Source of the DNA: a virus
Reading direction: 5' to 3' (one strand)
Length of the DNA: 64,000 nucleotides
IMG/VR virus record: IMGVR_UViG_3300012206_000001
Span: 4,884-68,883 of that record
Shown here: positions 38,307 through 38,498 of the stretch, one piece after another
Position numbering within the stretch: position 1 is the stretch's first letter
How the letters are laid out: every line of letters starts with the position of its first letter
Translations under genes and position numbers: made by a program
Notes under the pieces: generated by a model
Told to the model about the DNA's origin: nothing
Seen by the model: only the letters and a program-made list of their open reading frames with translations
Databases searched by the model: none

Positions 38307-38430
38307 CCATGACCCTGCCGGGAACACCCTGCCCGTGCGATGGCAGGGATACCCCATGTCGCACCACGGGGCTTGGGCGGAGGTGCGGCTAGCCGTCGGA
38401 GTCCGTACCCTCTCACCGGCAGGGCCGTGG
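38307..38430 (-). ncRNA. candidate four-way-junction structured RNA with kissing loops
   Basis: Closing stem GGCCCUGCCGG/CCGGCAGGGUC; loops GUGCGA and UCGCAC are complementary; G-U pairs occur only on the minus strand. Confidence 0.5.
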
Positions 38431-38465
38431 TTCCGAACATCATAAGACTCAGTTGCGGGTCTCGC

Positions 38466-38498
38466 GTTCGGCCCGGGGTGGATCAGCAGCCAGCGCAT
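38466..38498 (-). pseudogene. orphaned copy of the glycosyltransferase start (MRWLLIHPGPN)
   Basis: Near-identical to MRWLVIHPGP at 37666; own RBS GGGAG. Confidence 0.7.

Follow-up and report, generated by a model that had tools for sequence, protein, structure and literature searches.

The window analysed here, a 64-kb stretch of DNA, corresponds to bases 4884 to 68883 of a virus record of 68,883 bases with direct terminal repeats. Its GC content is about 70%, and the structural genes lie mostly on the minus strand. Soil metagenomes contain relatives of the local genes, as do assembled genomes labelled Actinomycetota, Micromonosporaceae and others. The window belongs to a soil actinophage, and its host is not known to be Streptomyces. 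An initial annotation had described, in a stretch located between two plus-strand genes embedded in the minus-strand late genes, an unrecognised RNA with a four-way junction and kissing loops. The features to which the text refers are the following.

22488–28403, minus strand: gene of 1971 codons, among the structural genes
36586–37629, minus strand: body of a glycosyltransferase-like gene (Pfam Glyco_trans_1_2, E 1.5e-10)
37627–38465: insert of 839 bp, absent from relatives (L003 alignment and a DNA contig of run X8)
37630–37636, minus strand: 7-nt coding gap UUAGCCC (comparison with L003, L005, L007 and others)
37637–37666, minus strand: replacement gene start, ATG at 37666 plus 9 codons (MRWLVIHPGP), 26 of 29 positions identical to the orphaned start
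37674–37764: left non-coding flank with three hairpins (fold of 37627–37764)
37765–38289, plus strand: NUMOD4-HNH homing-endonuclease gene of 174 codons (Pfam NUMOD4, E 2.3e-12; HNH_3, E 4.1e-08)
38307–38430, either strand: four-way junction, a closing stem and three arms (38375–38410, 38352–38371 and 38327–38348; folds with shuffle and genome controls)
38378–38390, plus strand: second copy of the 13-nt HNH ribosome-binding segment, a direct repeat inside the arm 38375–38410
38431–38471, minus strand: hairpin across the right-hand insert junction (fold; its CCGAAC is the last two codons of the orphaned start)
38466–38498, minus strand: orphaned original start, ATG at 38498 plus 10 codons (MRWLLIHPGPN; repeat and alignment)
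38512–38811, plus strand: divergent gene of 99 codons, function unassigned (codon statistics; relatives L003, 78%, and L004, 57%)
39837–40733, minus strand: head-tail adaptor (PHROG)
Relatives with duplicated gene starts: L010 2620–2974 (also L062 and L063), L052 1495–2498, L058 2211–2500 and L104 2296–2500

The 99-codon gene matched no Pfam or PHROG family. Another gene on the opposite strand among the late genes (35258–35962, plus strand) encodes an Ltp-type lipoprotein (Pfam Lipoprotein_Ltp, E 6e-32) that PHROG assigns to superinfection exclusion.

Comparison with the related locus L003, which has 244 bp where the window has 1092 bp, together with a DNA contig of run X8 that joins 37626 to 38466 and skips 839 positions with three ambiguous letters, defines an insert of 839 bp (37627–38465). 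The initial annotation had placed one of its hairpins at an insertion junction, and the contig confirms that position. In L003 the 99-codon gene and the glycosyltransferase-like gene stand back to back, 13 nt apart, and neither the HNH gene nor the junction is found between them. The insert lies between codons 11 and 12 of the minus-strand glycosyltransferase-like gene, the first 11 codons of which are thereby cut off. This orphaned start is still 13 nt from the divergent 99-codon gene, the same spacing as in the relatives, and is identical at 39 of 39 positions to the working gene start of L010, L062 and L063. At its far end the insert brings a new ribosome-binding site and the replacement start, and the gene body resumes at AAC 37629, is intact to its stop codon with a GC3 of 0.90 and aligns full length to the relatives. 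The insert has the layout of a homing-endonuclease cassette: the endonuclease gene is present here and absent from the collinear site in relatives. This context accounts for the position of the junction, which is the 3′ non-coding flank of the NUMOD4-HNH gene. A second HNH_3 endonuclease gene (39293–39859, plus strand), flanked by a 157-codon gene and the head-tail adaptor, is likewise inserted with respect to L003, which has 37 bp where the window has 614 bp.

Several relatives carry two or three copies of the first 30 nt or so of the glycosyltransferase-like gene, and the copies enclose differing small genes or endonuclease remnants. The occurrence of unrelated inserts with the same start duplication (L010, L062, L063, L052 and L058) characterises the position as a hot spot of recombination and not as the site of an intron. 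The hot-spot inserts of L010, L052 and L058 are unrelated in sequence and fold no better than their shuffles (z of +0.58, −1.70, −0.46 and +0.58).

The HNH gene starts with GTG at 37765, is preceded by the ribosome-binding sequence GGAGG at 37753–37757 and falls within PHROG HNH families. Its product ends in a helix-turn-helix, a predicted DNA-binding tail (matches to PHROG 517 and 6156). No close relatives were found in the viral contigs, and the best match in the phage collection is 43.5% identical, a distance that ruled out comparison of the flanks. The non-coding sequence on either side of the gene is unusually structured, more strongly on the left than on the right (z of −2.7 to −3.5 on the right). 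The fold of 37627–37764 has a z of −4.00 on the minus strand and −4.51 on the plus strand, with 0 of 200 shuffles as good. One of the three hairpins on this side, 37744–37764, surrounds the HNH ribosome-binding site; another, GGTCCGGCCG...CGGCCGGACC, occupies 37708–37742; and the remaining one, UCACCUCC/GGAGGUGA at 37674–37705, pairs the ribosome-binding site of the replacement start. Hairpins like the latter are present at the equivalent place in L009, L052, L057, L070 and L104; in the window as in these loci, the ribosome-binding site of the replacement start is paired with the end of the upstream endonuclease gene sequence. This arrangement suggests translational coupling or masking.

All the sequence elements listed in the initial annotation were found where it had put them. 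On the minus strand, the junction of 124 nt is closed by a stem between 38430–38416 and 38321–38307, with arms of 15 nt that are 87% complementary, and carries arms of 7 to 9 bp. The hairpin CCCCGUG-GUGCGA-CAUGGGG occupies 38371–38352, the hairpin CCCUGCC-AUCGCACG-GGCAGGG occupies 38348–38327, and the third arm, GGGUACGGA...UCCGCCC, spans 38410–38375. The six complementary loop bases GUGCGA/UCGCAC are present in the two hairpins, as had been noticed. Outside the closing stem, CCGAAC (38471–38466) pairs with GUUCGG (38438–38433) on the same strand, so that the hairpin crosses the insert boundary, GUUCGG being inside the insert. The 13-mer CGGAGGTGCGGCT, which the annotation had reported as shared with the HNH ribosome-binding region, does occur at both 37752 and 38378. 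Direct copies of CCCTGCC at 38313 and 38327 face copies of GGCAGGG at 38342 and 38420.

The minimum free energy structure of 38307–38471 on the minus strand is the one described above, with −81.7 kcal/mol and a z of −3.50, and 1 of 200 shuffles was as good. For the 124-nt junction alone the z is about −3.2 on the same strand (1 of 1000 shuffles as good). Loop–loop Watson–Crick complementarity of at least 6 nt was seen in 1 of 1000 shuffles and in none of 1066 windows of this genome. No 13-mer common to the two non-coding flanks of the insert appeared in 2000 shuffles, and a 13-mer as direct repeat anywhere in the shuffled cassette appeared in 22 of 2000. The plus strand of 38307–38471 is nearly as stable (−79.4 kcal/mol, z −2.72), and its minimum free energy structure pairs the region of the hairpin 38352–38371 differently. 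The expectation that the segment folds better than its shuffles was borne out at the coordinates first chosen and failed in wider or shifted windows: the entire 222-nt gap between the genes gave a z of −1.32 (minus) and −0.90 (plus), and a shifted 150-nt window that cuts the closing stem gave −0.29. Ranked by GC-adjusted energy among 2322 genome windows, the segment is in the lowest 1.6% on the minus strand and 3.4% on the plus strand. The fold is real and improbable for a random stretch, yet it is within what a scan of 64 kb could yield. When the two loops were forced into a helix the energy was −63.9 against −68.3 kcal/mol; since the cost is only 4.4 kcal/mol, the kissing loops and an alternative long hairpin are both possible. 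The most stable fold of the window by far, about 50 kcal/mol below the GC expectation, is elsewhere, at 3116–3339, where about seven copies of a near-perfect 25-nt palindrome, AAACCCCGCAGGATCTGCGGGGTTT, are arrayed in both orientations.

The strand on which the junction might work was considered from two positions. In the hairpin 38352–38371, one G-U pair of the minus-strand RNA corresponds to an A-C mismatch in the plus-strand RNA. The one natural variant seen in the junction, C to T at 38332 (a contig of run X8), leaves a G-U pair in the plus-strand RNA only and breaks the pair in the minus-strand RNA. The former favours the minus strand and the latter the plus strand, and neither strand is favoured overall.

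The label "unrecognised" still applies to the junction. Rfam gave no match at the gathering score over the 64 kb, and at E values up to 10 between 37500 and 38900 it gave four (E 0.45 to 9.7), none of which overlaps 38290–38511. A tRNA or tmRNA reading was discarded because ARAGORN found no such gene in the window. Homologues of the junction were absent from 50,697 phage records searched by blastn and from 97 related loci (17 viral and 80 metagenomic; blastn with word size 7), about 105 related loci being covered in all, and BLAST of five whole related records returned only a 20-nt match (E 0.036). Exact and degenerate patterns of the junction were found in none of the viral, metagenome or genome contigs apart from one match in a genome contig (L022), which was set aside as chance, as only the 20-mer matches and it lies between unrelated genes. 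A covariance model built from the single sequence reached a best E of 0.48 over 445,593 bases. A 368-nt contig of run X8 carries 38299–38444 (146 nt) with only two changes, between flanks of its own (189 and 33 nt) for which no fit to the window was obtained at 80% likeness. In this, the junction resembles a self-contained module. It is not covered by any open reading frame that has coding statistics or coding homology: six-frame tblastn and tblastx searches returned only noise (21 to 35 bits), and the open reading frame 38190–38513 on the minus strand was rejected as a gene because its codon statistics are non-coding.

We propose, with a probability of roughly 35%, that the junction ends or insulates the HNH transcript. 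It begins 18 nt past the HNH stop codon, and from its end about 80 nt are left to the next start codon on the plus strand. Its most likely place of action would be the plus-strand messenger of the HNH gene, where it would terminate or stabilise this transcript and separate it from the 99-codon gene, whose start is those 80 nt further on; the HNH ribosome-binding segment copied in the junction might contribute to control. Such a role is supported by the limits of the insert, the identity of the HNH gene, its structured flanks and the shared 13-mer, as well as by the X8 contig that carries the junction as a module, the pair at 38332 that is kept on the plus strand only, and the lack of coding sequence over the junction. 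The points against it are the absence of a U-tract after any of the stems, a consensus scan of 37300–39000 that found neither terminator-like nor promoter-like sites, the second HNH gene (39293–39859), which is devoid of such a flank, the A-C mismatch in 38352–38371 on the plus strand, the dependence of the fold signal on the window chosen, the missing homologue, and the finding that none of the runs containing the stretch is on record as RNA. It is also possible, and only slightly less likely, that the junction is a neutral leftover, a palindrome- and GC-rich spacer that is carried along with cassette recombination and has no function of its own. The failure to find relatives in the 97 loci of the same neighbourhood, the five whole records, the phage collection, the pattern scans and the covariance-model search would be expected of such a spacer, other inserts at the hot spot (L010, L052 and L058) fold no better than shuffles, and about 38 of the 2322 genome windows have a lower GC-adjusted energy. 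A leftover would nonetheless have to combine by coincidence the energy (1 of 1000), the loop complementarity (1 of 1000; 0 of 1066 windows) and the 13-mer (0 of 2000), and to have kept a core of 146 nt with two changes in the second sequence context of run X8.

The proposal of the initial annotation, that the junction is a structured RNA of the minus strand, a riboregulator or ribozyme in the late transcript, is rather unlikely. In that case the ribosome-binding site of the replacement start might be a pairing target of the CACCUCC segment, or the upstream message might be cleaved from the downstream one. The lowest energy and the cleanest four-way junction are indeed on the minus strand, the hairpin 38352–38371 needs the G-U pair that only this strand offers, the late genes, and hence the main late transcription, are on it, and the 13-mer read on it is an anti-ribosome-binding sequence. 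But no Rfam ribozyme or regulator family matches, the X8 variant at 38332 breaks a minus-strand pair, and a local anti-ribosome-binding hairpin already adjoins the replacement start. We assign a similarly low chance to a site that acts as DNA, in which the CCCTGCC/GGCAGGG inverted repeats would form a cruciform or a putative protein-binding site. Two direct copies facing two inverted ones, a structure equally available on both strands, as expected of a DNA palindrome, and the predicted DNA-binding tail of the HNH protein all fit this idea; the helix-turn-helix tail is the candidate binder, and binding could aid recombination of the cassette or self-regulation. The motifs, however, have no other copy at the second HNH gene or in the related cassettes. 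An intron reading of the insert, by which the junction would belong to the 5′ portion of a self-splicing element of about 839 nt that joins 38498–38466 to 37626 with CCGAAC/GUUCGG as P1, is very improbable. Joining 38466 to 37626 does restore MRWLLIHPGPN followed by FSVADMHVGW, which matches the relatives, the end of the exon pairs with the insert 27 nt downstream, and the insert contains an endonuclease gene; it thus resembles a group I intron with such a gene in being placed in phase between two codons and in having a helix across its 5′ junction. It differs from one in its core, splice sites and gene orientation. No group I or group II match was obtained in 37500–38900 even at E values up to 10, and the conserved catalytic core of group I introns (P3–P9) was not detected by Intron_gpI at that threshold. 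None of the four registers allowed by the three-letter ambiguity (C/C, A/A, A/A and G/C) shows the end bases of group I introns, a U (paired with G) preceding the 5′ cut and a G closing the intron, and the HNH gene is antisense to the supposed intron. Moreover, the insert ends in a complete ribosome-binding site, a start codon and a repeat of the first ten codons, all needless for an intron; L064 has the same interrupted start directly behind an upstream gene, with no upstream exon, and L009 has no second copy of the start within 3 kb.

The replacement start is separated from the gene body by seven bases. The messenger reads CCU UUA G CCC AAC UUC, with an in-frame UUA after CCU and with CCC at the end of the gap; the relatives read Pro-Asn-Phe and do not have the seven bases, and a UAG (37635–37633) is in frame with the gene body. 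The same gap design was found in L009, L104 and L066. For a survey of such breaks, 97 related loci were considered, 15 of which had no recognisable motif and one of which was cut at the contig end. A break at the gene start was present in nine of the 81 left (L009, L052, L057, L064, L066, L070, L081, L082 and L104). A frame scan of 105 loci added three breaks, near codon 41 in L082 and L092 and near codon 123 in L014. Including that of the window, there are 13 breaks in 12 genes at three positions; all 13 begin with an in-frame TTA, and the gaps are 4, 7 or 8 nt long. TTA is not used at all in the 9926 codons of the 23 predicted genes of the window, and it accounts for six of 24,639 codons in 75 distinct gene bodies, four of the six being at or behind breaks. 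A single tRNA reads both the codon preceding the gap and the codon closing it at seven of the 13 breaks (CCT/CCC twice, CCG/CCG three times, CTT/CTC and TAT/TAC); in the remaining six, only two of the three codon positions fit. The interrupted genes are otherwise open, with no further stop or frame break beyond those led by UUA, and in the seven conserved leader codons only synonymous differences occur. The dN/dS between interrupted genes is 0.31 to 0.46 in full-length pairs, from which little can be drawn because the pairs are only 61 to 64% identical and their synonymous sites are near saturation. One further locus with TTAG at the break (L111) was set aside because its assembly has several other frame breaks, and the breaks flagged by a script in L054, L077, L091, L093, L096, L097, L100, L101 and L102 were dismissed, as these genes are contiguous on inspection and have variant first residues. 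Ribosomes would probably have to skip the UUA gap in the replacement start; a shift by one base, or a failure to make the full protein, would be the alternatives.

Genes interrupted in this manner have been described in the terminase of Streptomyces phage Hau3 and in prophage terminases, for which UUA-mediated bypassing of UUA-led gaps was proposed and experimental support reported (Antonov et al. 2023, PMC10732093). As presented there, this type of bypass rests on three terminase genes of 100 (PMC10732093). The 13 breaks found here look like Hau3-type UUA-mediated bypassing in a new gene family. As far as that account extends, the two sets share short frame-disrupting inserts led by an in-frame UUA, flanks that are adjacent in insert-free relatives, a UUA codon that is otherwise almost unused, and a hairpin and a ribosome-binding-like sequence nearby. 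They differ in that the gene is here glycosyltransferase-like and not a terminase, in the number of cases (13 breaks at three positions in 12 genes here, compared with the three of 100 terminase genes), and in the gap length, which is 4, 7 or 8 nt here and not 10, although the paper also includes one 7-nt case (PMC10732093). A link to endonucleases, evident here, is not known to have been described for the Hau3 gaps.

Phage T4 offers a related arrangement, an element that combines the HNH homing endonuclease MobA with a homologous region encoded by the insert and a cassette for 50-nt translational bypass in gene 60 (Manning & Atkins, bioRxiv 10.1101/2022.08.31.505936). According to this source, the HNH gene moves together with a copy of the segment that it displaces, the bypass gap shields the target, and the endonuclease varies or is lost (bioRxiv 10.1101/2022.08.31.505936). 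Likewise, the HNH gene of the window interrupts a conserved phage gene whose site is empty in related genomes, and the insert supplies the displaced segment anew, with a short untranslated gap behind it. One site also houses differing endonucleases, an opposite-strand NUMOD4-HNH in the window and a same-strand HNH_3 type in L009 and L052, and the gap is kept where the endonuclease has been lost, entirely in L064 and down to a remnant in L104. Unlike the T4 gap, which is 50 nt long with a stop codon, the gaps here have 4 to 8 nt and are led by the rare codon UUA; in addition, the endonuclease of the window is antisense to its host gene and no nascent-peptide signal is evident. The cut at codon 11 leaves upstream only a useless stub, in contrast to the working subunit of the T4 case.

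Free-standing homing-endonuclease genes, such as mobE of phage Aeh1, have hairpins that hide the ribosome-binding site. The HNH gene of the window resembles them in that its ribosome-binding site at 37753 is within the hairpin 37744–37764 and both flanks are strongly folded. We know of no 124-nt four-way junction with complementary loops at the 3′ side of a gene in mobE-type systems. We tentatively suggest that the insert could be an actinophage counterpart of the T4 MobA/gene 60 element assembled from other components, in which an endonuclease, a portable start and a UUA gap are joined by the junction as RNA module. In such an element, ribosomes would hop from CCU to CCC while the rare UUA waits unread, the UUA gap would also spoil the target site of the enzyme, and the junction would control the endonuclease message via its copy of the ribosome-binding segment. 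Protection of the endonuclease target by the gap, as reported for T4, is a putative feature here.

To our knowledge, only a handful of natural translational bypass sites are known. Taken alone, as an unrelated structured spacer, the junction would carry modest weight, and the cassette with its UUA-led gap matters more. The 13 breaks have varied gap lengths, matched and unmatched landing codons, and two kinds of endonuclease or none beside them, a spread that would allow tests of the rules of take-off and landing and of whether gaps shield endonuclease targets. Two TTA codons are away from known breaks, at codon 326 of L012 and codon 316 of L013, 5 and 13 codons before the stop, and these might be further gaps near the 3′ end. 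At about 2470–2480 of L058, the gene appears to start with ATT after GGGAGG-TTAGCC, of which the hexamer TTAGCC is that of the gap in the window.
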